Below are positions 7,301 through 56,993 of a stretch of DNA of 64,000 nt, piece by piece. Made by a program: the position numbers and the translations under genes. The notes beneath the pieces are model-generated. The model was not told where the DNA came from. It saw only the letters and a program-made list of their open reading frames with translations, and ran no database searches. The stretch's first letter is position 1, and every line of letters begins with the position of its first letter. Source of the DNA: a virus (Duplodnaviria; Heunggongvirae; Uroviricota; Caudoviricetes); IMG/VR virus record IMGVR_UViG_3300050821_009413, positions 17,490 through 81,489 of that record. One strand, given 5' to 3'.

Positions 7301-8542
7301 GCGACCGCGATTGTGGTGGGTATTTTGTTGTTCACGGATTCGGGAAGTGGACCTACCGCCGTTTCCTGCGGCGGCCATTCGCTGGGGCTGATACCTTCCG
7401 GATTCCAGTTCTACAATCCTGGCGGGGAGTCTTGGAATCTTTACTTTTATGGACTCATCGATCCCCCTACCGGATCGCAAACCATGTCCGTCACCTATAC
7501 CGGCGGCAATAACGTTGTCACCGTAATGTCGGCTTCTTATGCTGGTGTCTCAAATTTTGGTACGCAGGTTACGGCCAGCGGTGAGGGAACCCACGCGTTC
7601 CAAACCATCGCATCGTCTGTGGGGCAGACGTTGGTTAACATGATCGGCGACACGGCAACGTCAACTGCGCTCATTGAATACAGCCAGAATGTGCGGGAGA
7701 ACCTCACCGGGAATGCTGGCGGGTTTGACACTTATACTTCCGCGTTGGGGGATGCGGCTGGGTCGTCTTCACCGATCACATTCTCAGCCAATGTGCAGGG
7801 CACGGGAACAATCCAATGGGGATCTATAACGGTTCCCCTTAACGGTGTGGTCCCACCGGCTCCGGCGTTGCTTCCCGCGCCGGCCCCGGTCACTATGGTG
7901 CCCTATTTGGAGCTGGCGGGAAGTGCCGGGCAAACGCAGTACGCCCCGGATCTTTACACATTCGATTCGCCGGGGACCACCTACTTCACCCCGCCGTCCT
8001 GGGCGAACTTCATCGACGTGATCGTCTGCAGCGACGGCGGTGCCGGGGAGACAGGCGGCCCGCTTGAGGGTGGTGCCGGTGGGGCACCGGGTTCATTCTT
8101 TGGGTTCACGATAACACCGGCCCAATTCGTGGACGGTGTATGGACGATATTCGTCGGCGGCGGAGGTGCCCCCAACTTTTCGACACCAGCCGGCGGGGGC
8201 GGGAACGGTCAGGGATGCAGCGTCGCCATCCCGGGATACGCACCTCCCGGTGGCTCCGTCCCGGGCAGTCCACTTCTGATCGCGGGCGGTCTGGGTGGCC
8301 CTCAGGGCGGAATCAGTGGCAGCCAGCTCGGCGGCCCCGGAGGAACCCCCAGCAACTTTTTGTTCAACGGCCAGGAATATGTGGGCGGCGGGGTCGCCGG
8401 CTCATCCCAGCAGCCCGGGCTGATACCAGGGGGCGGCGGTGCCGGTGGGGCCGGCGAGTTTGTGGGCCGATTCATTTACGGCGGCCCGGGAGCGCCGGGG
8501 ACTATATGGATTTTGTGTTACCAGTATGAAGGGCAGAATTAA
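4379..8542 (+). CDS. Large minor tail protein with Gly-rich C-terminal domain
   Basis: 1387 aa; internal AISAITGLAGYLxN repeats; C-terminal GGxGG-rich domain typical of actinophage tail proteins. Confidence 0.75.
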   Translation: MTNPFGAIDLFAGQNAISGTDLFGLDKNPLNVLSLGQGLLDDAVTAIENAIDEAIQNVPKFFEAFFYFLGELTEDMVNDILTFFGLPNLPPGASVEVIGQIFALPMEILNDLLTFLGLGTVNTVEAGLILGEVIQRPALFLEFLLEGLGLPADLTSADGLVAFLENLGGDVISGIGNFLDALLSGLGLEGITGPVGAELAALINSLAPLSTVNALFDEAIATIDNAVGQTLNFLVSFVDSLVGAVVGTVENVFPLITPLVIGAETTIGDLTGFLTSLASVHDLQSLQDLIYNTLTGIQGGIGWVSGVTTGTLTLALQELYAGLTTTAHQANNALISVGDLVVSVNQQIENAFALIPSGNLVGVIEQDLIPDITLEMSTALQTLINDLTNNFAGLQNPGVNATFTDLADALAGVNFNVQTAVTDAGTAVSNLLSLFESVGQATIGEFTTWLTGVTQHLDAVTGEFDATFLANVDELTGFAISAITGLAGYLTNLTVTGQFDAAFLTDIENIPALAIASITGLEGYLSNLDASGVYVANLAISAVTGLAGYLSNIASNGVINVAGLAGALTSAVTVGAASDIAALIGTVVGTVENDLPLALPYTIGTTTTLPDLAAFLSSLATQTSLQGLQDLIFNTLSGLPQLSWVTGTTSQQLAQAMAEFSATASSAQSMAAQALANVEAVLAGLGEITIPNESLSGLLGETVANTEGLAGQVQKALNSLINGFNGSAILGGTVAQLQQAANGIASLLGWNPTGPPPAQSISAITQTHTDFIANLAAAKPNYAALLKGADVTFPATALLSTVSAPTVGVTQTASLIGYITTNTGGTKKSVGWLGGATTNISSIVVNIYQVNIDTGDMSLISTSGNLLASANPPGNNVVPEWTYWNFSDTGNPDIVTAQGNVYGVEIQTLGTGTYEVVGLSSATWINPHPTAIPAGWAASRTTLAPPTFDAAALTATTSDDSPDPLTWTHVVGANATAIVVGILLFTDSGSGPTAVSCGGHSLGLIPSGFQFYNPGGESWNLYFYGLIDPPTGSQTMSVTYTGGNNVVTVMSASYAGVSNFGTQVTASGEGTHAFQTIASSVGQTLVNMIGDTATSTALIEYSQNVRENLTGNAGGFDTYTSALGDAAGSSSPITFSANVQGTGTIQWGSITVPLNGVVPPAPALLPAPAPVTMVPYLELAGSAGQTQYAPDLYTFDSPGTTYFTPPSWANFIDVIVCSDGGAGETGGPLEGGAGGAPGSFFGFTITPAQFVDGVWTIFVGGGGAPNFSTPAGGGGNGQGCSVAIPGYAPPGGSVPGSPLLIAGGLGGPQGGISGSQLGGPGGTPSNFLFNGQEYVGGGVAGSSQQPGLIPGGGGAGGAGEFVGRFIYGGPGAPGTIWILCYQYEGQN

Positions 8543-20245: not shown

Positions 20246-20297
20246 GCCGGGGCGGCGGGTGGGAGTTGGGCATCGCACACATCATGGCCGCCCCGGC
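20246..20297 (-). ncRNA. TIGR-like dual-guide hairpin (solo)
   Basis: Minus strand: GCCGGGGCGG-CCA-TGATGTGTG-CG-ATGC-CCA-ACTCCCACC-CG-CCGCCCCGGC. Confidence 0.75.
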
Positions 20298-27871: not shown

Positions 27872-29020
27872 ATGGCCGAGTACGGGAAACTTTTCTCGAG
27901 CATCTGGACGAACAGCGACTTCCGGAAACTAGCCGCACGTGAACAGCAGCTGTACTGCCTGCTGATCTCGTTCCCCACCCGCAGTCTCGCCGGCGTCCTT
28001 CCGTTGACCATCAAGCGATGGGCTAACTGCACAGAAGACGCCACCGAGGCGAACATCACCGAAGCGCTCAGCGCCCTAGATGCCCTCCGATTCATCGTCG
28101 TGGACTGGCAATCCGAGGAACTCCTCGTTCGAACATTTATTCGAAACGACGAGGTTTACAAGCAGCCGAACCTCATGAAGGCGTGCCTAAAGGACGCCCA
28201 AAAGACCGAATCTACGGCCCTGAGGCAGGTTCTTCAGAGGGAATTATTAGGCCTCCCGGAGCACAGAAACAAGGAATTGACGGAGATCGTCGCAAACAAG
28301 CTGGTAGAAACCCCTAGCGAAGGGTTCCCGGAGGGGATCTCGAAGCCATCCGGAACCCTTGTTGAAGTGATAACCGAGAAACCGGAAACCCTTCTCGAAC
28401 CCATCCTCGAAGGGTGCGGTGTAGGTGTAACTACAGTAAGTAACCCACCTACACCTACACCTGCAGCCTCCACCGACACCTACACCGAACACCTGCACCC
28501 AAGTGGTCAAGTAAGCGGTAAGCGATCTGTAAGCAACGCGCGAGAACGAAACGACTCCAGCCGACAGCCCGATCGCATGGGCCGCCCCGAAATGTCGCTG
28601 ACCGTCCTGGCGGGCGGAAAAGAGTCGGTCCCCGAAGTCCCGCCGCCCGACCGGCGAGCCAACGTGAACTCCAACGATCCAGACGCACGGGCCATGGTCG
28701 CCGCCACCGTCCCCAAGGAAATCCTGGTCTCCGGGAAAACCGCGTGGGGTCTCAGAACGCACGTCGCTACGCTGCTGCACAACGGTGCCGATCCGCAGAT
28801 TCTCGAAAGGACCCTGCGGAGGTGGGTCCAGTCCTCAGGGGTGTACCCGGGCGACGTGCCCCACATGTACGCTGAGGAAGTCAAGGCCGCGGCAGGCCCA
28901 CTTGCGCCGCGCAACGCGCCCAGGCTGTCGCCGGTCGACGAAAAAGCGATGAGCTACCAGCGCAGACGCCAAGAGGTCGAACGCGAAGAAGCGATGGAAA
29001 TCCAAGGAGAACTCGAATGA
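27872..29020 (+). CDS. Phage replication initiator (RepA-like)
   Basis: YGKL..IW..DF..L N-terminus; internal iteron-like repeats; followed by helicase-loader-like gene. Confidence 0.7.
   Translation: MAEYGKLFSSIWTNSDFRKLAAREQQLYCLLISFPTRSLAGVLPLTIKRWANCTEDATEANITEALSALDALRFIVVDWQSEELLVRTFIRNDEVYKQPNLMKACLKDAQKTESTALRQVLQRELLGLPEHRNKELTEIVANKLVETPSEGFPEGISKPSGTLVEVITEKPETLLEPILEGCGVGVTTVSNPPTPTPAASTDTYTEHLHPSGQVSGKRSVSNARERNDSSRQPDRMGRPEMSLTVLAGGKESVPEVPPPDRRANVNSNDPDARAMVAATVPKEILVSGKTAWGLRTHVATLLHNGADPQILERTLRRWVQSSGVYPGDVPHMYAEEVKAAAGPLAPRNAPRLSPVDEKAMSYQRRRQEVEREEAMEIQGELE
28307..28500. repeat. Iteron-like repeats inside rep gene
   Basis: Recurrent GAAACCC(C/T), CGAAGGG and ACACCT(A/G)CACC motifs. 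Confidence 0.45.
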
Positions 29021-30313: not shown

Positions 30314-30698
30314 CCGACCGTAGGATTTGGACGCGTGACGGCTGGGCGGACCTGCGGGCTATGCAGGATTTCCGCACAGAGAGCGGTGTGCAGGCGATGA
30401 TCGACCAGTACGCGAACAGCTTGCCGGCGGAGTTACAGGACGCGACCCGCGACGTGTATGTGCGCGCCTACCGGCGCGCCGGTTTGTTGCCGGGCAACCC
30501 GGATGAGATCGGTACCAGGCTTCCGGCTTTGCGGAACCCGGAAAAGCCAGTAGAGTGTGATTCAGCCTCCGCATCCGCTGCTTGGACTTCGGATGCGGAG
30601 TGCCCTCCAGGTCCGGGGACGGCCAGAGACGGCATGTCACCCATCGACAATTTGCCGTCCCCGGATCCCGCGGGACCCGAAACCTGAGGAGAAATCGA

Positions 30699-41498: not shown

Positions 41499-41807
41499 TC
41501 ACCAGGCCACCGTCGGCGGCAACATAATCAACGGCGGCTCAACAACCCTTTTCGCGCGCATACAGTCGCAACCGCTGCAACCAGCAGCACAATCACGCTG
41601 CTCCGGAGCGCAACAAGGACACGAAGCCCCACGCGCAAACAAATCAGGATTACTCGTCATATCGGAACCTTCTAGGAGGGCTTTCTGCTTATGCGCATCA
41701 ACCACGGTTTTGTGACAACCCACAACCATGCCGGTCTTTGTGTCGGTGACACTGACCGGCGCACCGAACGGGCAGTTCTCGTCACCGGTTTTGATCGCGA
41801 AACGCAT
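41499..41807 (-). CDS. Hypothetical Cys-rich protein (possibly two small genes)
   Basis: First ORF downstream of the leftward guide array. Confidence 0.45.
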   Translation of the reverse strand: MRFAIKTGDENCPFGAPVSVTDTKTGMVVGCHKTVVDAHKQKALLEGSDMTSNPDLFARGASCPCCAPEQRDCAAGCSGCDCMRAKRVVEPPLIMLPPTVAW

Positions 41808-41846
41808 CGCCTAATAATAAGTGGTCAGAGGGCTAGTGGGCGGTGC

Positions 41847-41897
41847 TCCGGGCCGGCGATTCGCCTTGGGGATCGTGCACTCTATAGCCGACCCGGA
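41847..41897 (-). ncRNA. TIGR-like dual-guide hairpin
   Basis: TCCGGGTCGG-CTA-TAGAGTGCA-CG-ATCC-CCA-AGGCGAAT-CG-CCGGCCCGGA (first box variant CTA). Confidence 0.65.
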
Positions 41898-41912
41898 ACG
41901 CCGCGGCTGGGG

Positions 41913-41966
41913 CTTCAGGACGGCGCTCTCGTTTTGGGGAACGGGCTCAAGATGGCCGCCCTGAAG
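41913..41966 (-). ncRNA. TIGR-like dual-guide hairpin
   Basis: CTTCAGGGCGG-CCA-TCTTGAGCC-CG-TTCC-CCA-AAACGAGAG-CG-CCGTCCTGAAG. Confidence 0.8.
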
Positions 41967-42001
41967 CGGTCGATGGGCTTCCTTTCGTTGCTGGGGTGGC
42001 C

Positions 42002-42046
42002 CGGGCGGCGGACACGTCTTGGTTTGCACGGAATCATGGCCGCCCG
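42002..42046 (-). ncRNA. TIGR-like dual-guide hairpin
   Basis: CGGGCGG-CCA-TGATTCCG-TG-CAAA-CCA-AGACGTGTC-CG-CCGCCCG. Confidence 0.8.
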
Positions 42047-42057
42047 AACCACCCAAG

Positions 42058-42063
42058 AGTATA
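42058..42063 (-). promoter_or_regulatory. Putative leftward -10 box (TATACT)
   Basis: 12 nt upstream of first leftward guide hairpin; -35 not clear. Confidence 0.45.
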
Positions 42064-42218
42064 GCAGCCAACTGGCACCTTGCGTCCAGCCTTAACGACC
42101 TGCTACACTTACACCATGTTCACTGCGCGCAACCACACACGACCGTCGTGGCCCTGGCCTTATACGGCCCAGGGTTAATAGCGCGCATCACCACCCGCTA
42201 GCAACCCCGGGCTACAAC

Positions 42219-42297
42219 CGGGGTGTGGGCCAACTTGGTAGGCCACCTGCTTTGGGTGCAGGCATCGCTGGGGGTTCGAATCCCTCCTCCCCGACCA
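42219..42297 (+). tRNA. tRNA-Pro(TGG)
   Basis: Cloverleaf; cctgc-TT TGG GT-gcagg; encoded CCA. Confidence 0.9.
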
Positions 42298-42298
42298 C

Positions 42299-42372
42299 AT
42301 ACCCGTGGTGTAGTGGTAGCACAAGGGCCTCCAAACCCCTTAGTGTGGGTTCGATTCCTACCGGGTGTGCCA
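42299..42372 (+). tRNA. tRNA-Trp(CCA)
   Basis: Loop CT CCA AA; TTCGATT; encoded CCA. Confidence 0.9.
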
Positions 42373-42393
42373 ACTTTGGGTGCGCGCTTTCAT

Positions 42394-42472
42394 GCGGGTC
42401 AGCGACGGGTGTCGCAAGCCGCCTGTAAAGCGGCTGCCGTTGGCATGGACAGTTCGAGTCTGTCGGCCCGCA
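42394..42472 (+). tRNA. tRNA-Tyr(GTA), reduced D loop
   Basis: gccgc-CT GTA AA-gcggc; long variable arm; 4-nt D loop. Confidence 0.8.
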
Positions 42473-42482
42473 CGATAGCTGG

Positions 42483-42512
42483 TTGCGTAGCCAATGGCCA
42501 CCATGGTATGAT
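42483..42512 (+). promoter_or_regulatory. SigA-type promoter
   Basis: TTGCGT-N18-TATGAT. Confidence 0.6.
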
Positions 42513-42558
42513 TTAAGTAACGGCAATTGCTATGACTTTTGACAACTGAAAACATTGT

Positions 42559-42630
42559 GCGACCGTGGCCGAGTGGCGAGGCAACAGCCTGCAAAGCTGT
42601 TCTACGCGAGTTCGATTCTCGCCGGGCGCT
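42559..42630 (+). tRNA. tRNA-Cys(GCA)
   Basis: acagc-CT GCA AA-gctgt. Confidence 0.9.
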
Positions 42631-42634
42631 CAAA

Positions 42635-42680
42635 CCGGCGGCCATTCCCAGTACGTTCCCCAGATGGCAACTGCCGCCGG
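42635..42680 (+). ncRNA. TIGR-like dual-guide hairpin (between tRNA-Cys and tRNA-His)
   Basis: CCGGCGG-CCA-TTCCCAGTA-CG-TTCC-CCA-GATGGCAAC-TG-CCGCCGG. Confidence 0.85.
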
Positions 42681-42687
42681 GTCAATC

Positions 42688-42758
42688 CCTGCGTTAGCCT
42701 AGTGGTAAGGCATCTGGTTGTGATCCAGAGAACCGGCGTTCGATTCGCCGACGTGGGA
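42688..42758 (+). tRNA. tRNA-His(GTG)
   Basis: tctgg-TT GTG AT-ccaga; lacks G-1/C73. Confidence 0.85.
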
Positions 42759-42840
42759 CAGTGGGCCAGGGTTCCCAGTGTTTGCCCTCATTGAGGCCGT
42801 GGCTCCGGAGCCAAGAAGCCCACGAACCGGAGCATTTAAA

Positions 42841-42911
42841 GCGGATGTGGTGTAGTGGTAACATCTCACTCTTCCAAAGTGATGTCGCCGGTTCGAACCC
42901 GGTCTTCCGCT
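42841..42911 (+). tRNA. tRNA-Gly(TCC)
   Basis: tcact-CT TCC AA-agtga. Confidence 0.9.
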
Positions 42912-43018
42912 CGCTAGCACCCCTCACCGCTGATGCTGGGGCATCACGCGCCGAAAGGCCTGGGGGGCGCTGACCCGAAACGGTGAGAAGGGTTGGCAAC
43001 AAAAATGCTGGCACCAAA

Positions 43019-43438
43019 GGGGCCGAAAGGTTTCGACAGGTGATTTGACAACTGAACAGCGGGCAAGTGTTGACCGCATTTCTACTTTGAGTGAACGCGG
43101 TAAAAAGATAAACGTCGACACTAACGACGCAACGGTCACCGAGGCCGACTTCGCCGAGATCGAGGCTTTCGCCAACGGTCTCGTCGCCGTCTGAATCGGC
43201 TGACCAGCCTGAAACAAGCTGACCGCTCGCAGCGTTTCGGGCTTAAAATCTAGAAGCGGTAGACCAGACGACAGCCACGTCTCTAAACCGGGTTGGCTCC
43301 CGCCGTAGGGAGTTATTAGGTGCGGCTTTGGTAGCAGGAGTTGTCTCGTACAACCTGCGCCGAGAAGTAAACGAGACTACGCCCGTAGAACCCTTTTAGA
43401 TAAAATCCTGGACCCGTGTTCGATTCACGGCGGCTCCA
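43019..43438 (+). ncRNA. ssrA: tmRNA
   Basis: GGGGCCG/CGGCTCC acceptor with G3.U70; GGTTTCGAC 5' motif; T arm at 3' end; tag ORF 43114..43194 (A)VDTNDATVTEADFAEIEAFANGLVAV*. Confidence 0.92.
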
Positions 43439-43442
43439 CAAA

Positions 43443-43488
43443 GGGAAGGCCAGGTAGAGCGTGACACCCAAAAACAGGATGCCTTCCC
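43443..43488 (+). ncRNA. TIGR-like dual-guide hairpin (between tmRNA and tRNA-Ala)
   Basis: GGGAAGG-CCA-GGTAGAGCG-TG-ACAC-CCA-AAAACAGGA-TG-CCTTCCC. Confidence 0.85.
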
Positions 43489-43492
43489 ACCT

Positions 43493-43565
43493 GGGGATAT
43501 AGCTCCAACGGTAGAGCAACTCCTTTGCAAGGAGACGGCTGGGGGTTCGAATCCCTCTATCTCCA
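43493..43565 (+). tRNA. tRNA-Ala(TGC)
   Basis: GGGGATA start; loop TT TGC AA. Confidence 0.9.
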
Positions 43566-43614
43566 CACCGTGCGGGCACGGTATTGGCAGGAATCGACCT
43601 GCCAGCCCGCACTT

Positions 43615-43687
43615 GCCTAGTTAGCTCAGATGGAAGAGCGTCCGGTTGAAGCCCGGAAGGCCCAAGGTTCGACTCCTTGACTTGGCA
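43615..43687 (+). tRNA. tRNA-Phe(GAA)
   Basis: tccgg-TT GAA GC-ccgga. Confidence 0.9.
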
Positions 43688-43852
43688 CAGGGCGGAGCGG
43701 CTTGCACCAGGTACCGGGTTGCAGGTTCCTTCGGTGAGAGCCGAGGGTCGGTCGTTGTTCGCGACAGCGACCGGGAACCGCCCGTTAAGTACAGGCTGGT
43801 GTTCGCACGCACCGCTCCGATGCACCCGCGCCGTCGGGGGCCTGTACTTGAT

Positions 43853-43923
43853 GCCCGATTAGCTCAATGGGAGAGCACCCCGTTCACACCGGGGATACTG
43901 GGGTTCGATTCCCTGATTGGGTA
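43853..43923 (+). tRNA. tRNA-Val(CAC)
   Basis: ccccg-TT CAC AC-cgggg. Confidence 0.88.
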
Positions 43924-43926
43924 CAA

Positions 43927-43972
43927 GGGACGGCCATACCCGATGTGTTACCCAAGTGCGTTCTGCTGTCCC
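43927..43972 (+). ncRNA. TIGR-like dual-guide hairpin (between two tRNA-Val)
   Basis: GGGACGG-CCA-TACCCGATG-TG-TTAC-CCA-AGTGCGTTC-TG-CTGTCCC. Confidence 0.85.
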
Positions 43973-43976
43973 GATT

Positions 43977-44048
43977 GTCCTGTTAGCTCAGTGGTAGAGC
44001 GCCGCGGTGACATCGCGGAGGCCCGGAGTTCAATCCTCTGACGGGACA
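43977..44048 (+). tRNA. tRNA-Val(GAC)
   Basis: ccgcg-GT GAC AT-cgcgg. Confidence 0.88.
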
Positions 44049-44049
44049 C

Positions 44050-44310
44050 ATGATGAAATGGTCTTGGCGTTGCGCCAGCTGCACGAATCGTGTGGTTATT
44101 GAGTCGGATTTTGCGGGCGCTGTTCCGCGGCGTGTGGTGTGCGCACAGTGCCGCGGGGCGGTCGTCGCGGAGTGGCCACATTCACGCGCGTTAGGGGAGC
44201 GGTGGATAGTGTTTCCGTGTCCGTGGCCGGCTGACCAGAAATGGCCTGGCCTAAAATTTTTTGCTACTCGCGAAGAAGCGCAGGATTGGGTACAATCGTT
44301 ACAACCATAA
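44050..44310 (+). CDS. Small Cys-rich hypothetical protein within tRNA array
   Basis: CxxC..CxxC pairs. Confidence 0.5.
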   Translation: MMKWSWRCASCTNRVVIESDFAGAVPRRVVCAQCRGAVVAEWPHSRALGERWIVFPCPWPADQKWPGLKFFATREEAQDWVQSLQP

Positions 44311-44363
44311 GGAGCTACGGAATGAAGCGAAAGCAGACAACGCGAACTACCGCGTACTTTCGC

Positions 44364-44435
44364 GCGCCCGTAGCTGAGTGGTTATAGCTCGAGACTCTTA
44401 ATCTTGAGACGTGGGTTCGATTCCCACCGGGCGTA
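44364..44435 (+). tRNA. tRNA-Lys(CTT)
   Basis: cgaga-CT CTT AA-tcttg. Confidence 0.9.
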
Positions 44436-44440
44436 CGTAC

Positions 44441-44485
44441 GGGACGGCCAATTCGTTGTGATTCCCAAAAGATGGCCGCCGTCCC
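44441..44485 (+). ncRNA. TIGR-like dual-guide hairpin (between tRNA-Lys and tRNA-Thr)
   Basis: GGGACGG-CCA-ATTCGTTG-TG-ATTC-CCA-AAAGATGGC-CG-CCGTCCC. Confidence 0.82.
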
Positions 44486-44491
44486 GTCGCT

Positions 44492-44566
44492 GCCACTGTA
44501 GCTGTTGTTGGCATCAGCACCGACCTCGTAAGTCGGAGAGCGCGAGTTCGATTCTCGCCCGTGGCT
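44492..44566 (+). tRNA. tRNA-Thr(CGT)
   Basis: ccgac-CT CGT AA-gtcgg. Confidence 0.85.
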
Positions 44567-44570
44567 CGAA

Positions 44571-44616
44571 GGGACGGCCAAACGCCAAGCGACACCCAGA
44601 GACCGGTTGCCGTCCC
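44571..44616 (+). ncRNA. TIGR-like dual-guide hairpin (between tRNA-Thr genes)
   Basis: GGGACGG-CCA-AACGCCAAG-CG-ACAC-CCA-GAGACCGGT-TG-CCGTCCC. Confidence 0.85.
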
Positions 44617-44620
44617 GCAC

Positions 44621-44691
44621 GCCGACATAGCATAGTGGTAGTGCGCTTCCATGGTAAGGAAGTGGCCCGGGTCCGATTCCCGGTTTCGGCT
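44621..44691 (+). tRNA. tRNA-Thr(GGT)
   Basis: cttcc-AT GGT AA-ggaag. Confidence 0.88.
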
Positions 44692-44696
44692 CGATC

Positions 44697-44742
44697 TCGA
44701 CGGCCATTGAAGATGCGGCACCCATACCTGAACTGCCGTCGA
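44697..44742 (+). ncRNA. TIGR-like dual-guide hairpin (between tRNA-Thr genes)
   Basis: TCGACGG-CCA-TTGAAGATG-CG-GCAC-CCA-TACCTGAAC-TG-CCGTCGA. Confidence 0.85.
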
Positions 44743-44747
44743 GACGC

Positions 44748-44820
44748 GCCGTTGTAGCTCAACTGGTAGAGCACTCGCCTTGTAAGCGAAAGGTTCGGGG
44801 TTCGAGACCTCGTAGCGGCT
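44748..44820 (+). tRNA. tRNA-Thr(TGT)
   Basis: tcgc-CT TGT AA-gcga. Confidence 0.9.
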
Positions 44821-46184
44821 CAGCTGTTGGTGACGGTGAGCCCGGCGATCGTGACTTGGGAGTTTCCGACGCCGGCCACGCCTACCTGCGTTCCGATGTC
44901 GGCGTATAGGCCGAATTGGAGGAACGGGGTTCCTCCGTCGCCGGAGTACACGGTGGGAACGCCGGTGTGGTTGACGTATTGGGTGCCGTCCAGCGACAGT
45001 TGGTAGAACCCGTCAGTGCCCAGCGACCAGCGGACTTTGATGGTGACGTGGTGCCACGTGTTGAACGTTAGCGGTGCCCAGGTGTAGAGGTAGTTCGCGC
45101 CTGCCGCGTGTTGGAACCCGAACCGGAACGAAGGAACCCCGGCACCGCCGGGTCCGCGTCCGGTGTTGTCCAGTTCGACGGTGTGCCCGCTGGAGACGCC
45201 TGGTGTGTGGAATTCCATCAACACCCCGCCGTTCCATGAGGTGACGACACCTTGGGTGGGGAGGTAAAGGTAGGCGTCCCACTGTTGGGTGGTGTTCATG
45301 GCGACGTCTTTGCCGGCGCCTGGGTTGACTTTGGCGAGGACAGCTTTCATCGTGTTGTCCCACAGGGTGACGTCGGTGGTGTCGGAGACAACGCACTGCC
45401 AGCCGGGGCCGAATGGTGTGGTGACGATCTGGAAGTCCGGTGTGAGTTGGACTGCGGGGTTGTAGAACGTTTTCCGCGCGAACAGCAGCAGCAGGTCGGA
45501 CAGCGCTGAGATGCTGCCAGCTGGTGGCGGCGGTGGTGGTGGTGTGACAACTGATTCGGTGGCCGACAGGACACCATGCCCGGCTGGCGCGCCGGACGCG
45601 ATTCCCGGTGGCGGCGGGGGTGGTGGTGTTACTGGGGCGATGTTGAGGCTGGCGATCATGTCAACGCTGGTGCCGCTGTTCTGCCGCGACGTGAACAGCA
45701 GGTTGCAGGCACTCAAAGCGAGTGTGCTGTATGACAGGCTGGACAGCTGCGTCCACGCGACACCGTCGGGGGAGGCGTCTAAGTATCCGACACCGGCGGA
45801 TTCGCGTAGCCGCAACCAAGCGTGGCTGGTCGGGTTGTACAGGACCCCGGGCGCGGATGCGTAGGCACCCGCAACGAACCGGTACAGGAAGATGACCGGT
45901 TTCGTTCCGCCTGAAATTTCCAGGCCGAACCGGTTGTTGCTGTCCGCGAGTTCGGTGCGCAGGTCGAACAGGAATGTCCGGTCGGAGGTGTCTCCGATGG
46001 TCACTTTCGCGAACACGGTGGACCCGACGAAGCTGTATTGCGCTTTGGTGTGCGCCTGCACGGTCCATGTCGCGGCTGCGGCCAGGTTCAGGGCACCACC
46101 AGACACTGATGCGCCCGTCCCGTATGACCAGACCGTAGTGTTGGGGGCTGAGAAGTTATCGGTTAACGACGAGATGAGCGCCAC
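44820..46184 (-). CDS. Two-domain lectin/ConA-like + polysaccharide-lyase-like protein with Pro-rich linker
   Basis: N-terminal YNPTSHAWLRLRES..G..Y.DAS.DG..W domain; PPPPPPP linker; C-terminus paralogous to 18735..19466. Confidence 0.65.
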   Translation of the reverse strand: MALISSLTDNFSAPNTTVWSYGTGASVSGGALNLAAAATWTVQAHTKAQYSFVGSTVFAKVTIGDTSDRTFLFDLRTELADSNNRFGLEISGGTKPVIFLYRFVAGAYASAPGVLYNPTSHAWLRLRESAGVGYLDASPDGVAWTQLSSLSYSTLALSACNLLFTSRQNSGTSVDMIASLNIAPVTPPPPPPPGIASGAPAGHGVLSATESVVTPPPPPPPAGSISALSDLLLLFARKTFYNPAVQLTPDFQIVTTPFGPGWQCVVSDTTDVTLWDNTMKAVLAKVNPGAGKDVAMNTTQQWDAYLYLPTQGVVTSWNGGVLMEFHTPGVSSGHTVELDNTGRGPGGAGVPSFRFGFQHAAGANYLYTWAPLTFNTWHHVTIKVRWSLGTDGFYQLSLDGTQYVNHTGVPTVYSGDGGTPFLQFGLYADIGTQVGVAGVGNSQVTIAGLTVTNS

Positions 46185-46214
46185 AGCGCAACTCCTTCAG
46201 GAGGCGAAACAGTC

Positions 46215-46397
46215 TTACAGTGCGGTGATGTTAGATCCGGAAACACTGATGGTGACCGCGTCGTCGCCTCCGGAAGCGATAACGTCCACATTTTTCAGCC
46301 AAGCACGCAAAGCGTTAAGTGAGCACGGAGTGGCGAGCGTCGCCGCGGGAGGCGGTCCGCTGGTTACCGGCGCAACAATATGTCTCGAAGAAGCCAT
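46215..46397 (-). CDS. Micro-protein, tandem paralog 4
   Basis: HIV..GPP..LATPCSLNALRAWL..GG..VTI; RBS aggaaaaggg. Confidence 0.75.
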   Translation of the reverse strand: MASSRHIVAPVTSGPPPAATLATPCSLNALRAWLKNVDVIASGGDDAVTISVSGSNITAL

Positions 46398-46408
46398 TTC
46401 CCTTTTCC

Positions 46409-46588
46409 TTACGCCGCCGTGATCTTAGATGAGGTGGTGGTGATGGTGACGTCTTCTTCGCCACCGACGCCGAGGACGTCCATCTGCTGCAACCAAACAC
46501 GCAAAGCGTTCAGCGTGCACGGGGTGGTTAGGGTTATCGGAGGCCCAACTTGCAGGCTTCCTTGAGAACCAACGATGTGCTTAGCCAT
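46409..46588 (-). CDS. Micro-protein, tandem paralog 3 (59 aa, missed by ORF track)
   Basis: MAKHIVGSQGSLQVGPPITLTTPCTLNALRVWLQQMDVLGVGGEEDVTITTTSSKITAA. Confidence 0.75.
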   Translation of the reverse strand: MAKHIVGSQGSLQVGPPITLTTPCTLNALRVWLQQMDVLGVGGEEDVTITTTSSKITAA

Positions 46589-46605
46589 AGTCGAAACCTT
46601 CCTGT

Positions 46606-46794
46606 TTAGGCGGCTGTCATGGTTGAGCTGGTGGTGGTGATGGTGACCGTCCCGGTGCCACCGGCACCGACGATCGTCACCAGGCCGTCCAGCCAGGCGT
46701 GGAGCTGCATCAAAGTGCAGGGCGTAGACAATGGTGCCGGCGGCCCGACCTGAGCGCCGCCCTGGCTACCAACAATGTGCAAAGATGAGGCCAT
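46606..46794 (-). CDS. Micro-protein, tandem paralog 2
   Basis: HIVGSQGGAQVGPP..TPCTL..L.AWL..VTITTTSS.MTAA; RBS aggag. Confidence 0.75.
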   Translation of the reverse strand: MASSLHIVGSQGGAQVGPPAPLSTPCTLMQLHAWLDGLVTIVGAGGTGTVTITTTSSTMTAA

Positions 46795-46806
46795 TCTGCT
46801 GCTCCT

Positions 46807-46995
46807 TTAGGCCGCGGTAACAGTGTTTGAGGTGGTGGTGATAGTGACAACGGTTTCGCCGACGCCGCCACCAAGAGCGTCGATGTTGTTCACCCAGTTC
46901 AGCAGCGCTTGCAGCGTGCACGGGGTGGCCAGGTTAGCCGGAGGCCCCACCTGCATCCCGCCCTGCGACCCGGTGATGTGGTCGGAAACGGCCAT
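46807..46995 (-). CDS. Micro-protein, tandem paralog 1
   Basis: HITGSQGGMQVGPP..TPCTLQALL.W..VTITTTS..VTAA; RBS gagagga. Confidence 0.75.
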   Translation of the reverse strand: MAVSDHITGSQGGMQVGPPANLATPCTLQALLNWVNNIDALGGGVGETVVTITTTSNTVTAA

Positions 46996-47088
46996 GGTTC
47001 ATTCCTCTCCAAGAATGGATCTACATCATGATGAACCGGAATTGCCGGTGTACAACGTCAGGCACACCGTGTTATCATCGATGTAATT

Positions 47089-47160
47089 GCACTAGTGGCC
47101 TAGTGGTATGGCGTCACCTTGCCAAGGTGAAGGACGCGGGTTCGAGTCCCGCCTGGTGCT
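47089..47160 (+). tRNA. tRNA-Gly(GCC)
   Basis: tcacc-TT GCC AA-ggtga. Confidence 0.9.
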
Positions 47161-47163
47161 CGA

Positions 47164-47215
47164 TCTTGATCTGCCATTCCACTGATGTCTCCCATCTGTA
47201 GCTTGCGGATCAAGA
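47164..47215 (+). ncRNA. TIGR-like dual-guide hairpin (between tRNA-Gly and tRNA-Asp)
   Basis: TCTTGATCTG-CCA-TTCCACTGA-TG-TCTC-CCA-TCTGTAGCT-TG-CGGATCAAGA. Confidence 0.85.
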
Positions 47216-47219
47216 CCAT

Positions 47220-47294
47220 GGTTCTGTAGATCAGCGTGGAGTGATCGCCGCCCTGTCACGGCGGAGGCCGCGGGTTCGAGTCCCGTCAGAGCCG
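47220..47294 (+). tRNA. tRNA-Asp(GTC)
   Basis: ccgcc-CT GTC AC-ggcgg. Confidence 0.9.
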
Positions 47295-47355
47295 CATGTA
47301 TATAGATGGTCTGCGAATTAAGCAGCGACGCCAACCGCGTCGCTGATTTCCGCAC

Positions 47356-47427
47356 GCCCGTCTAACTCATTGGCAGAGTGGCACCCTGATATGGTGCTGG
47401 TACGAGGTCCGATTCCTCGGATGGGCA
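47356..47427 (+). tRNA. tRNA-Ile(GAT)
   Basis: gcacc-CT GAT AT-ggtgc. Confidence 0.88.
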
Positions 47428-47428
47428 C

Positions 47429-47500
47429 GCCTTTGTAGCTCAGAGGAAGAGTGCTTGACTACGAATCAAGAGGCCGCAGGTTCGACTCCTGCCAGGGGCA
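47429..47500 (+). tRNA. tRNA-Arg(ACG)
   Basis: cttga-CT ACG AA-tcaag. Confidence 0.9.
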
Positions 47501-47501
47501 C

Positions 47502-47780
47502 GTGACCGTTAAGTTTGATGATGTGTCTAAGGCGTGGGCGTCAGCGAAGCTGACGAAACACCACGTCGCGCACACGGCTATCCGTAACGTCGACTTCGAC
47601 ATCATGGCTTCTGGGGGCTGTGTCGGGCACGGCGAGAATGAGTACTGCTACTGCGACACGTCGGCGGACGTTGACATCACGATCTACTACTTCAATAAAA
47701 CCAAAAAATGCAGCTACTACACAATTAACTGCGGCGAATACAGTCTAGGTTCCTTACTTAAGGAGCTGGTGGAGTGGTAA
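47502..47780 (+). CDS. Hypothetical protein within tRNA array
   Basis: GC..C.C motif; starts right after tRNA-Arg. Confidence 0.5.
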   Translation: MTVKFDDVSKAWASAKLTKHHVAHTAIRNVDFDIMASGGCVGHGENEYCYCDTSADVDITIYYFNKTKKCSYYTINCGEYSLGSLLKELVEW

Positions 47781-47794
47781 CAAACATACGCAAC

Positions 47795-47866
47795 GCCTCC
47801 GTGGCGCGGCGGTCTGCGTATCATGCTTATAACATGAAGGTTCGGGTTCAACTCCCGACGGAGGTA
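47795..47866 (+). tRNA. tRNA-Ile(TAT)
   Basis: tcatg-CT TAT AA-catga; acceptor gcctccg/cggaggt. Confidence 0.8.
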
Positions 47867-47923
47867 CAATAGGAACATGATCCAGCGACGGCGTAGAGAC
47901 AGGCGACAACAACATGTCGCCAT

Positions 47924-47998
47924 GCCGTCGTAGCTAAATCGGATGTAGCATCAGCTTTCTAATCTGCGTTTATGCGGGTTCGAGTCCCGTCGGCGGCA
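47924..47998 (+). tRNA. tRNA-Arg(TCT)
   Basis: Loop TT TCT AA; weak anticodon stem; good acceptor and T arms. Confidence 0.8.
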
Positions 47999-48004
47999 CC
48001 CAAA

Positions 48005-48078
48005 TGAGGTGTGGGGTAATTTGGCAGCCCGCTGGATTTTGGTTCCGGACGATGAAGGTTCGAGTCCTTCCGCCTCAG
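48005..48078 (+). tRNA. tRNA-Gln(TTG)
   Basis: ctgga-TT TTG GT-tccgg. Confidence 0.88.
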
Positions 48079-48082
48079 CTCA

Positions 48083-48152
48083 GCCTTCGCCAGCGGACCT
48101 GGCGTCGGGGTTCCGATCCCCGGCTGCGGCAGTTCAACTCTGCCCGGGGGCG
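48083..48152 (+). tRNA. tRNA-Arg(CCG), atypical short D arm
   Basis: cgggg-TT CCG AT-ccccg; D arm ccag-cggac-ctgg abuts the acceptor stem. Confidence 0.7.
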
Positions 48153-48156
48153 CGAG

Positions 48157-48231
48157 GCCGCCGTGGCTGAACGGATAAGCACTCCTCTCCTAAGGGAGCT
48201 TATGCAGGTTCGAGTCCTGCCGGTGGCACCA
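48157..48231 (+). tRNA. tRNA-Arg(CCT)
   Basis: ctcct-CT CCT AA-gggag; encoded CCA. Confidence 0.9.
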
Positions 48232-48309
48232 CCGCCCGCCCGTTTAATTAACACACCGCTGGCGTGTTTCGGGTAGGTTTTAGCCGGTGGCTGGGTTACA
48301 GTTCCGGTC

Positions 48310-49347
48310 ATGCGAATGCTTGCCTGGGTTGCGTTAGCTTTCGGGATCCCAACCGCGGCCTGGTGGACGTTTTTTTGGGCTGGCCTGCCGGTTCGGCGTG
48401 GGGAGTGGAAGTTTTTCACGGGCTGGATTGACGATTCGTCGCAGGAGACAACCCCGGGCCGGTGGAATCATGTCCGCCGGTACAGCGGGGAGATGCACTC
48501 CCGCGGTCACCCGCTCGCGCGGTGCCAAAGCAACCATGACGGGTCCCGGTTCGTTGTGTTGAACCTGGACCATTTCGGCTACCCGTGGGATGGTGGTTGT
48601 TTGGCGCGCAGGCTGCGCAGGTTGATCGATTTCGCTGCCCGGAGCGCGCTGGTTCAGGTGTTCCCGATCCCGAACGCGGCGTGGCACAGGCTGACACCCC
48701 GGGGCAGCGAGCGCCGTGAGTACAACTTTCGTGTGGTGCAGCGCCGCGGCAGGGAGTGCGTGTTCACTAGGACACACAAGTCGGGTGGGGATCCCGACTA
48801 CTTTCTGTCCGGGTTTGACCGTAATGAGCGCCCTGCGCTGTATTTTTTGACGCAGCTGCCCGGTCCGGTGGAGTCGATTCGGGCTGCGCGGGAAGCGTTG
48901 AAGCCGGACAGTGTGTTGATGGCCCTGGCTGGTGGCCGGAAGGTGTACCGGCAGGGCGACATGTTCGCTATCTGCACCGATCTGACGACCGCCGAGATTA
49001 GGGCGTTGGGCGGCACGGTGGAGGTGCTTACCGCCTATGCCGCCGCCGCCGACCGTGATGCGTTCGCGTTGTATGGGACGGCGCACACCGCGGACTATGT
49101 GGCGACGATGCCCGACGGGACGATGCTGGCGTTCGGGAAGATGCGTCACACGCCGTGGCTGATCGGCGATAACCGGGAGCCGGATCATAAGCCGTTAAAG
49201 TTGAAACGCGGCAGGTGGCATTTGGTCGCGAAGAACACCACCCCGATGGTCAAACCCGTCGAACCTGATCAGCCGTTTCAGAGTGTTGTGCGGCGGTTGG
49301 CGGCAGGCGACCAGGTGGCTATCACTTACATGCCGGAGGGGAGGTGA
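48310..49347 (+). CDS. Hypothetical phage protein
   Basis: C-terminal RQGD..H..RH..H motif seen in actinophage accessory proteins. Confidence 0.55.
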   Translation: MRMLAWVALAFGIPTAAWWTFFWAGLPVRRGEWKFFTGWIDDSSQETTPGRWNHVRRYSGEMHSRGHPLARCQSNHDGSRFVVLNLDHFGYPWDGGCLARRLRRLIDFAARSALVQVFPIPNAAWHRLTPRGSERREYNFRVVQRRGRECVFTRTHKSGGDPDYFLSGFDRNERPALYFLTQLPGPVESIRAAREALKPDSVLMALAGGRKVYRQGDMFAICTDLTTAEIRALGGTVEVLTAYAAAADRDAFALYGTAHTADYVATMPDGTMLAFGKMRHTPWLIGDNREPDHKPLKLKRGRWHLVAKNTTPMVKPVEPDQPFQSVVRRLAAGDQVAITYMPEGR

Positions 49348-49493: not shown

Positions 49494-49548
49494 GTCCGGG
49501 GCTGGCCATAGTTGCTGTGATATCCAGACCGAATCCGCCGCCCCGGAC
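49494..49548 (+). ncRNA. TIGR-like dual-guide hairpin (solo, intergenic)
   Basis: GTCCGGGGCTGG-CCA-TAGTTGCTG-TG-ATAT-CCA-GACCGAATC-CG-CCGCCCCGGAC. Confidence 0.8.
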
Positions 49549-56633: not shown

Positions 56634-56701
56634 GGCGCACGTTCCGGTGACTAGCGAAGCTCTAACCTTCGCGACCGCGGGTTCGACTCCCGCATGCGCC
56701 G
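56634..56701 (+). tRNA. tRNA-like gene with CUA anticodon (amber suppressor/Pyl-like shape)
   Basis: gcgaag-CT CTA AC-cttcgc 6-bp stem; tiny D arm; normal T arm; ggcgca/tgcgcc acceptor. Confidence 0.7.
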
Positions 56702-56993
56702 CGTGAAAGCCAGGTTCCAAACCATCCCGCCGGAATGTCAGCACTGCGGCATCATCGACAGTCCAGACTTTGGTGCCCCGGTGGATTGCTACGAAGACAA
56801 CGAACCCGACCCGCGCTGGTTCATGTGGTTATGCGCTAATTGCCGAACCGACCAGTGGCATGCCAGCAACGGCACGGTCTCGTTGCGGGAGTTCCTTGGG
56901 CAAACCGAACTGGAACATAAATACTGGGTCGAAGGCAAGTGGGAGCCGTTCGCTGACGCTTACTACGAACGTGTCTGCGGAAACGACTGACAT

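Follow-up and report, generated by a model that had tools for sequence, protein, structure and literature searches.

Relation to described TIGR-Tas systems

The closest described counterparts of the elements reported here are the stem-loop TIGR/TasA systems, represented by PlTasA from the Peromyscus gut and BlTasA from Bifidobacterium longum, whose guide RNAs (tigRNAs) combine a variable palindromic stem with two CCA-N9-YG segments and a short linker (PMC12045711; bioRxiv 10.64898/2026.09.09.750476; bioRxiv 10.64898/2026.08.11.744272). We found the same unit anatomy in a 64,000-nt stretch (hereafter, the window) comprising bases 17490-81489 of a 145,489-bp IMG/VR phage genome (IMGVR_UViG_3300050821_009413; 59% G+C; complete according to CheckV), where seven spacers between genes for transfer RNA (tRNA) or transfer-messenger RNA (tmRNA) each contain one such hairpin. 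All seven units, and about 31 genome-wide, conform to the published rule for stem-loop tigRNAs, i.e., CCA as box C, TG or CG as box D, 14-nt intervals, a linker of no more than 15 nt and palindromic flanks (bioRxiv 10.64898/2026.09.09.750476; PMC12045711). This agrees with an earlier sequence-only reading of the window, which had called the hairpins TIGR-like dual-spacer guides, and the same genome encodes a Tas protein, outside the window. Counting also the case in which their position beside tRNAs is incidental, we are highly confident that these hairpins are tigRNA genes. We conclude that this is a known system, TIGR-Tas, in a new and recurrent organization, in which tigRNA genes are interleaved with tRNA genes and dispersed genome-wide.

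The locus resembles PlTasA and BlTasA not only in its guides: its effector, too, is a solo-Nop Tas protein without a nuclease, and one unit lies within or just upstream of the annotated tas start, as reported for BlTasA. However, in published TIGR arrays the units are in tandem, next to tas or within it, whereas here we find seven single units between tRNAs, 37–42 kb from tas, one other unit that adjoins tas, and further units scattered across 120 kb. No CUU processing motif of the published kind is apparent; instead, tRNA ends bracket the units. The program TIGRFinder covers at most 10 kb around tas, and array finders of that scope miss much of a phage repertoire: about 30 of 31 units in this genome, and at least 35 of 38 in a second phage genome, G001 (see below).

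The Tas protein of this phage is homologous to gp21 of Mycobacterium phage Omega (NC_004688.1), which is annotated as a 'transposase' but recognized as Tas by the NCBIfam model NF052498 (217 bits), and to cluster-A 'transposases' (e.g., those of Bethlehem and Rufus). In Omega, all eight matches of our covariance model fall within 14.2–16.6 kb, around tas, in the canonical local layout, whereas the units analyzed here are dispersed. None of the cultured Tas-positive phages that we examined has a large tRNA array.

The sequence-only reading knew of no description of this arrangement, and the literature that we searched likewise holds no mention of tRNA-linked tigRNAs. The word tRNA is absent from the papers on stem-loop tigRNAs (bioRxiv 10.64898/2026.09.09.750476; 10.64898/2026.08.11.744272), and in the founding paper (PMC12045711) it occurs only in cited references on plant genes that join a tRNA with a small nucleolar RNA (snoRNA). 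TIGR-Tas and mycobacteriophages appeared together only in that founding paper, through a citation. The search returned no paper tying tigRNAs to tRNA processing.

Three further systems invite comparison. Dicistronic tRNA-snoRNA genes of plants were reportedly described by Kruszka et al. in 2003 as being processed by RNase Z, and the polycistronic tRNA-guide RNA (PTG) design is a synthetic construct for CRISPR. Both resemble the putative arrangement here in that a small guide RNA is fused to tRNAs for release by universal tRNA-processing enzymes, and box C/D snoRNAs are evolutionary kin of tigRNAs; however, the former are eukaryotic and the latter is engineered, with guides that act on RNA and in CRISPR, respectively, whereas here a natural phage would supply guides to a DNA-targeting Tas protein. 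The tRNA cluster of phage T4 contains co-transcribed small stable RNAs, species 1 and 2, which, like the units here if our reading is correct, are non-tRNA stable RNAs inside a phage tRNA operon that mature with the tRNAs; unlike the units here, species 1 and 2 have no known protein partner or guide architecture. Should tRNA processing indeed release the guides, the array would be a natural prokaryotic counterpart of the plant tRNA-snoRNA genes and of the engineered tRNA-guide RNA polycistron. The interleaved layout extends the kinship of tigRNAs and box C/D snoRNAs to the way in which they are packaged with tRNAs in genomes, and it offers a natural model for expressing many guides compactly alongside small, PAM-free Tas proteins.

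tigRNA units in the tRNA array

Coordinates are window positions unless marked genome. On its plus strand, the window contains 30 tRNA genes and one tmRNA gene according to ARAGORN, and in 41500-48500, the stretch searched with Rfam, the two sets of tRNA and tmRNA calls agree. The only nucleotide match to a cultured phage is the tmRNA of Mycobacterium phage Phabba (83% identity), a Myrnavirus of cluster C type. Since the start of the Phabba tRNA array is also similar in gene order (Pro-Trp-Tyr...), the source genome is, by sequence, that of an uncultured phage distantly related to the large, tRNA-rich mycobacteriophages. The first block of the array and the predicted tigRNA units within it are as follows:

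42219-48231, plus strand: first block of the tRNA/tmRNA array, with 22 tRNAs and one tmRNA; holds all seven units
42635-42680, plus strand: unit between tRNA-Cys (42559-42631) and tRNA-His (42688-42759); stem CCGGCGG/CCGCCGG; 48.6 bits with the covariance model
43443-43488, plus strand: unit between the tmRNA (43019-43439) and tRNA-Ala (43493-43566); stem GGGAAGG/CCTTCCC
43927-43972, plus strand: unit between tRNA-Val(cac) and tRNA-Val(gac); stem GGGACGG/CTGTCCC, with one G:U pair
44439-44487, plus strand: unit between tRNA-Lys(ctt) and tRNA-Thr(cgt); 9-bp stem; spacer A of 8 nt
44571-44616, plus strand: unit between tRNA-Thr(cgt) and tRNA-Thr(ggt)
44695-44744, plus strand: unit between tRNA-Thr(ggt) and tRNA-Thr(tgt); stem TCTCGACGG/CCGTCGAGA
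47164-47215, plus strand: unit between tRNA-Gly(gcc) and tRNA-Asp; AT-richer 10-bp stem

The seven hairpins, in the Cys-His, tmRNA-Ala, Val-Val, Lys-Thr, two Thr-Thr and Gly-Asp spacers, were all found where the sequence-only reading had placed them, and all have the loop CCA-N9-YG-N4-CCA-N9-YG, spacer A being 8 nt long in the Lys-Thr unit only. The perfect stems measure, in order, 7, 7, 7, 9, 7, 9 and 10 bp, to which a C:G pair joining box C to box D is added in each. With the ARAGORN ends as reference, the units begin 2–3 nt after the upstream RNA and end 3–7 nt before the next tRNA; the sequence-only reading had given 3–6 nt and 4–7 nt, respectively. All seven are on the strand of the flanking tRNAs, and for none of the seven did we see promoter-like or terminator-like sites between unit and tRNA; a promoter-like site does occur at 47049-47078, directly upstream of tRNA-Gly. 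Rfam reports only the tRNAs and the tmRNA and has no family for the hairpins.

Each of the seven units folds as predicted when taken alone (z-scores -1.2 to -3.5), and when the 458-nt Lys-Thr-Thr-Thr precursor is folded as one RNA, its three hairpins still form. Stems next to tRNAs are shorter (mean 8.0 bp) than those of the other units in this genome (mean 10.4 bp; Mann-Whitney p 0.003), which is consistent with a relaxed need for an extended processing stem. One candidate was rejected: a degenerate unit in the Ile-Arg spacer (47868-47922), whose apparent 3' stem strand is the acceptor stem of tRNA-Arg. The Ala-Phe spacer (43567-43614) carries a different, nested hairpin, GTGCGGGC...TGGCAGG-AATCGAC-CTGCCA...GCCCGCAC, without C/D boxes.

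Statistical support and distribution over the genome

A comparison of motif frequency with random sequence, which the sequence-only reading had proposed as a check, came out in its favor. Over the 145,489 bp we counted 25 strict motifs with a stem of 5 bp or longer, while 30 second-order Markov simulations yielded a mean of 0.07 and a maximum of 1. Because of this excess, a chance origin of the motif is excluded. Relaxed rules (CTA as box C, a 5-nt linker) raise the count to 30, and the covariance model adds one unit with an imperfect stem, giving about 31.

Thirteen units, those detected in the window, served both for the covariation analysis and for building the covariance model. In nine of the 11 stem pairs both sides change in a compensatory manner, and 90.9% of cells are paired, compared with 69.6% in shuffles, none of 500 of which reached the observed values, and 33–51% in slid registers. 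The spacers, on the other hand, are all distinct (60 of 60), so that both covarying stems and differing N9 segments, as originally described, are borne out. The covariance model detected one additional unit in the window (49495-49547) and none in 24 kb of Phabba, which is Tas-negative.

The approximately 31 units are spread over the whole genome and both strands. Seven in the window and one just outside it lie in tRNA spacers, while about 23 lie between or inside protein genes, usually 4–17 nt from neighbors on the same strand; these are mostly single units in short gaps between co-oriented genes, with a few inside annotated reading frames. The description of a guide repertoire stored in a tRNA operon is therefore correct in that units do reside in the operon, but overstated, as most are elsewhere. 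Among the units that are not part of the array described above are:

41845-42054, minus strand: three units (41845-41899, 41912-41967, 41994-42054) in a leftward mini-array that diverges from the tRNA array; stems of 12–15 bp; one CTA as box C
20246-20297, minus strand: solitary unit in a gene gap; 53.3 bits
30610-30667, plus strand: solitary unit with a 13-bp stem; 54.5 bits
35211-35262, plus strand: solitary unit; 53.4 bits
49495-49547, plus strand: unit with an imperfect stem, found by the covariance model only; 38.8 bits, E 5e-6
genome 82271-82319 (window 64782-64830, just past the window end), plus strand: well-formed antisense unit between two minus-strand tRNA-Leu genes

The last of these sits in a second, small tRNA cluster (four Leu, one Ser) and is the sole unit in a tRNA spacer that is not co-oriented with the tRNAs.

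The Tas protein

The tas gene was reached through other viruses: IMG/VR was scanned with the hairpin pattern, contigs with canonical tandem arrays (5–10 units) were selected, and the array-adjacent open reading frames (ORFs) were compared with this genome. The array-adjacent ORFs of the other viral contigs have one homologue here, at genome 101058-102068 on the minus strand, 19.5 kb past the window end and 37–42 kb from the tRNA-linked units. The protein matches NF052498 (TIGR_Tas_endo, 'TIGR-Tas system RNA-guided endonuclease') with 190 bits (E 4e-56; cut-off 100) over residues 65-298 and profile positions 1-214 of 215, and is the single copy in the genome. The Pfam Nop model (PF01798) matched neither the six-frame translation of the genome nor the Tas protein, in which Pfam finds no domains at all. 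A phmmer search of the PDB with Tas returned TasR (9mty; 4.7e-8) and TasH (0.003). With the AlphaFold model (mean pLDDT, the predicted local distance difference test score, 77.9), the best 11 Foldseek matches in the PDB were all TasR or TasH, followed by IS110-family recombinases. The Nop- or IS110-like Tas protein for which the sequence-only reading had suggested a search is therefore present, and both NCBIfam and Foldseek assign it to the Tas family.

Because the protein contains no nuclease domain, neither HNH nor RuvC, and has no room for one, the phage Tas is of the nuclease-free TasA type. The ORF comprises 336 aa, of which residues 1-55 are disordered, unconserved and overlap a tigRNA unit: the called frame starts 55 codons before the conserved region, and these codons contain the unit at genome 101902-101947. 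Translation either begins further downstream or runs through a guide embedded in the coding sequence, as reported for Bifidobacterium longum TasA.

Homologues of this Tas protein occur in 91 cultured actinophage records (41–49% identity), where they are usually annotated as 'transposase' or 'hypothetical', and both in further viral contigs and in cultured Omega they adjoin stem-loop arrays of the canonical tandem kind. Many cluster-A genes labeled 'transposase' or 'DNA binding' that lie beside a Cas4 exonuclease gene are likewise Tas homologues.

Recurrence of the tRNA-interleaved arrangement

Independent cases of the same arrangement emerged in other phages from two scans of IMG/VR for units downstream of a tRNA T-arm. 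G001 (118,920 bp; 65% G+C; rated complete) has essentially no nucleotide similarity to the present genome, yet encodes a Tas protein (207 bits) and 38 units. Half of these (19 of 38) are inside an array of 37 tRNAs, all 19 on the tRNA strand; 12 of the 19 lie within 0–5 nt of a tRNA end, and the rest are in tandem beside those 12.

Interleaving with tRNAs was found in two further IMG/VR lineages. Contig G004 has the order tmRNA, 2 nt, unit, 4 nt, tRNA-Gln, 1 nt, unit, followed by arrays, with a tas gene (227 bits) 1.5 kb downstream. In G005 and G006, units lie 2–3 nt from tRNA-Gly, tRNA-Cys and tRNA-Thr; no Tas protein was detected in these two contigs, both of which are incomplete. Phabba, despite the similar order at the start of its tRNA array, has neither Tas nor units, and its tRNA spacers carry other hairpins that are not tigRNAs. 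A scan of genome contigs for the tRNA-unit junction gave, among the at least 120 matches listed, no real tRNA-adjacent unit but chance matches in high-GC genomes, a result that says nothing about absence.

Proposed maturation of the tRNA-linked guides

RNase Z cleaves precursors that lack an encoded CCA after the discriminator, and RNase P cleaves at the next tRNA's position +1. CCA is not encoded by any of the seven RNA genes upstream of units, and this phage and G001 both lack a gene for a CCA-adding enzyme (PF01743); the 3' ends of these RNAs therefore depend on endo- or exonucleolytic trimming and CCA addition by the host. Since the units are co-oriented with the tRNAs, lie 2–7 nt from tRNA ends, follow CCA-less RNAs and recur in this position in other Tas-positive phages, we infer that they are released by tRNA processing, a route that fits the anatomy of the array. 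The guides would be transcribed as passengers of a polycistronic tRNA/tmRNA transcript. An RNase Z-type cut after the discriminator of the CCA-less upstream tRNA would leave a 5' tail of 2–3 nt, and an RNase P cut at the 5' end of the downstream tRNA a 3' tail of 3–7 nt, so that a guide of about 51–60 nt could be freed with no dedicated nuclease. The freed hairpin may then load into a dimer of the nuclease-free phage TasA, encoded about 37 kb away. In this complex the CCA (box C) and YG (box D) segments would anchor the RNA, and each of the 9-nt spacers would pair with a different strand of an 18-bp DNA site. Like the TasA proteins described so far, the complex might bind DNA and repress transcription rather than cut.

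Taken as a whole, release of tigRNAs by tRNA-processing enzymes seems to us the probable mechanism. Stem-loop Tas proteins lack the catalytic Tyr/His processing loop, and a conserved host RNase has been invoked for maturation of their guides (bioRxiv 10.64898/2026.09.09.750476); the tRNA-flanked units now name two candidate enzymes, RNase P and RNase Z. A broader version, in which large actinophages use tRNA arrays as platforms for tigRNA expression and maturation, RNase P and RNase Z are both necessary and sufficient, and TasA guides silence genes of rival phages or of the host, we can put forward only tentatively; if correct, it would identify the host RNases for at least one class of stem-loop tigRNA.

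Several observations weigh against the proposed mechanism. With about 23 of the 31 units away from tRNAs, maturation cannot depend on tRNA processing in general. G001 often has two or three tandem units between two tRNAs, so that an extra cut by another RNase is needed there. One unit is antisense to the minus-strand tRNA-Leu genes that surround it. At the foot of the tRNA-linked stems we see no sign of the CUU motif that was published for processing, and a stable hairpin as close as 2–4 nt might impede cleavage by RNase P or RNase Z. Finally, a search for self-targets in this genome and in G001 (both half-site orders, gaps of 0–4 nt, up to three mismatches) found only background, apart from one self-match that is discussed below.

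The first three of these points also favor a different account, according to which the tigRNAs are genuine but their position beside tRNAs is incidental, the units having spread by duplication or insertion into permissive gaps and being matured by the same host RNase as other stem-loop tigRNAs; moreover, the literature invokes only a host-supplied RNase for the latter. This account does not sit easily with the fact that the tRNA ends have to be cut anyway, by RNase P and in 3' processing, leaving tails of 2–7 nt, or with the tight abutment in at least three unrelated Tas-positive phages, the consistent co-orientation (seven of seven here, 19 of 19 in G001) and the shorter stems of the tRNA-adjacent units, and we regard it as rather unlikely.

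That the hairpins are instead structural elements of the tRNA operon (processing spacers, folding insulators or attenuators) with no link to Tas could draw on their stable folding and on the presence of other hairpins in the tRNA spacers of Tas-negative Phabba. However, it leaves unexplained both the hypervariable 9-mers, framed at a fixed distance by CCA and YG boxes that do not vary, and the identical units far from any tRNA. The units are, furthermore, confined to Tas-positive genomes (in the incomplete G005 and G006, Tas was not detected) and absent from the Phabba array, and 32-nt loops with no T-tract after the hairpin rule out intrinsic terminators, which makes this explanation highly improbable.

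Least plausible of all is a role as box C/D-like guides for RNA modification, e.g., of the phage tRNAs and tmRNA, in the manner of archaeal box C/D small RNAs and without DNA targeting. Tas Nop domains are indeed kin to proteins of box C/D small nucleolar ribonucleoproteins (PMC12045711), and archaeal tRNA introns and plant tRNA-snoRNA genes are said to tie such guides to tRNAs (references in PMC12045711). Nevertheless, spacer complementarity to the phage tRNAs and tmRNA is not in excess, perfect 9-mer matches numbering 2 (1.2 expected) here and 2 (0.6 expected) in G001, with one-mismatch matches likewise at background; the Tas ORF has no fused methyltransferase domain, the search having covered this ORF and not the rest of the genome for fibrillarin or L7Ae; and published Tas proteins bind and cleave DNA, not RNA.

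Candidate targets

A guide encoded in the tRNA array of G001 (G001 7988-8029, minus strand) matches 17 of 18 positions of window 28038-28055 in the A+rc(B) geometry, i.e., spacer A followed by the reverse complement of spacer B, while none of 1332 mispaired controls did so. The site is inside an ORF on the plus strand (27872-29020), the G001 homologue of which is only 36% identical. This match could be a hint of targeting between phages. A self-match of the unit at 30610-30667 (17 of 18) was set aside, as its spacer A (GAGACGGCA) resembles the unit's own stem; it is probably an artefact or a trace of the origin of the unit.

Neighboring genes

The plus-strand tRNA array is split by a 2.2-kb block of minus-strand genes (44820-46995). 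This block contains four tandem paralogous ORFs of 59–62 aa with the pattern ...TPC(T/S)L.AL..W...VTITTTS...TAA, transcriptionally upstream of a gene for a 454-aa protein that has poly-proline linkers and a C-terminal Pfam Polysacc_lyase domain. Pfam searches with ten neighboring proteins revealed no relation to tRNA or RNA processing. Further along the window, at 56634-56702, ARAGORN calls a 69-nt 'tRNA-Pyl' with the anticodon CTA, a candidate amber suppressor tRNA.

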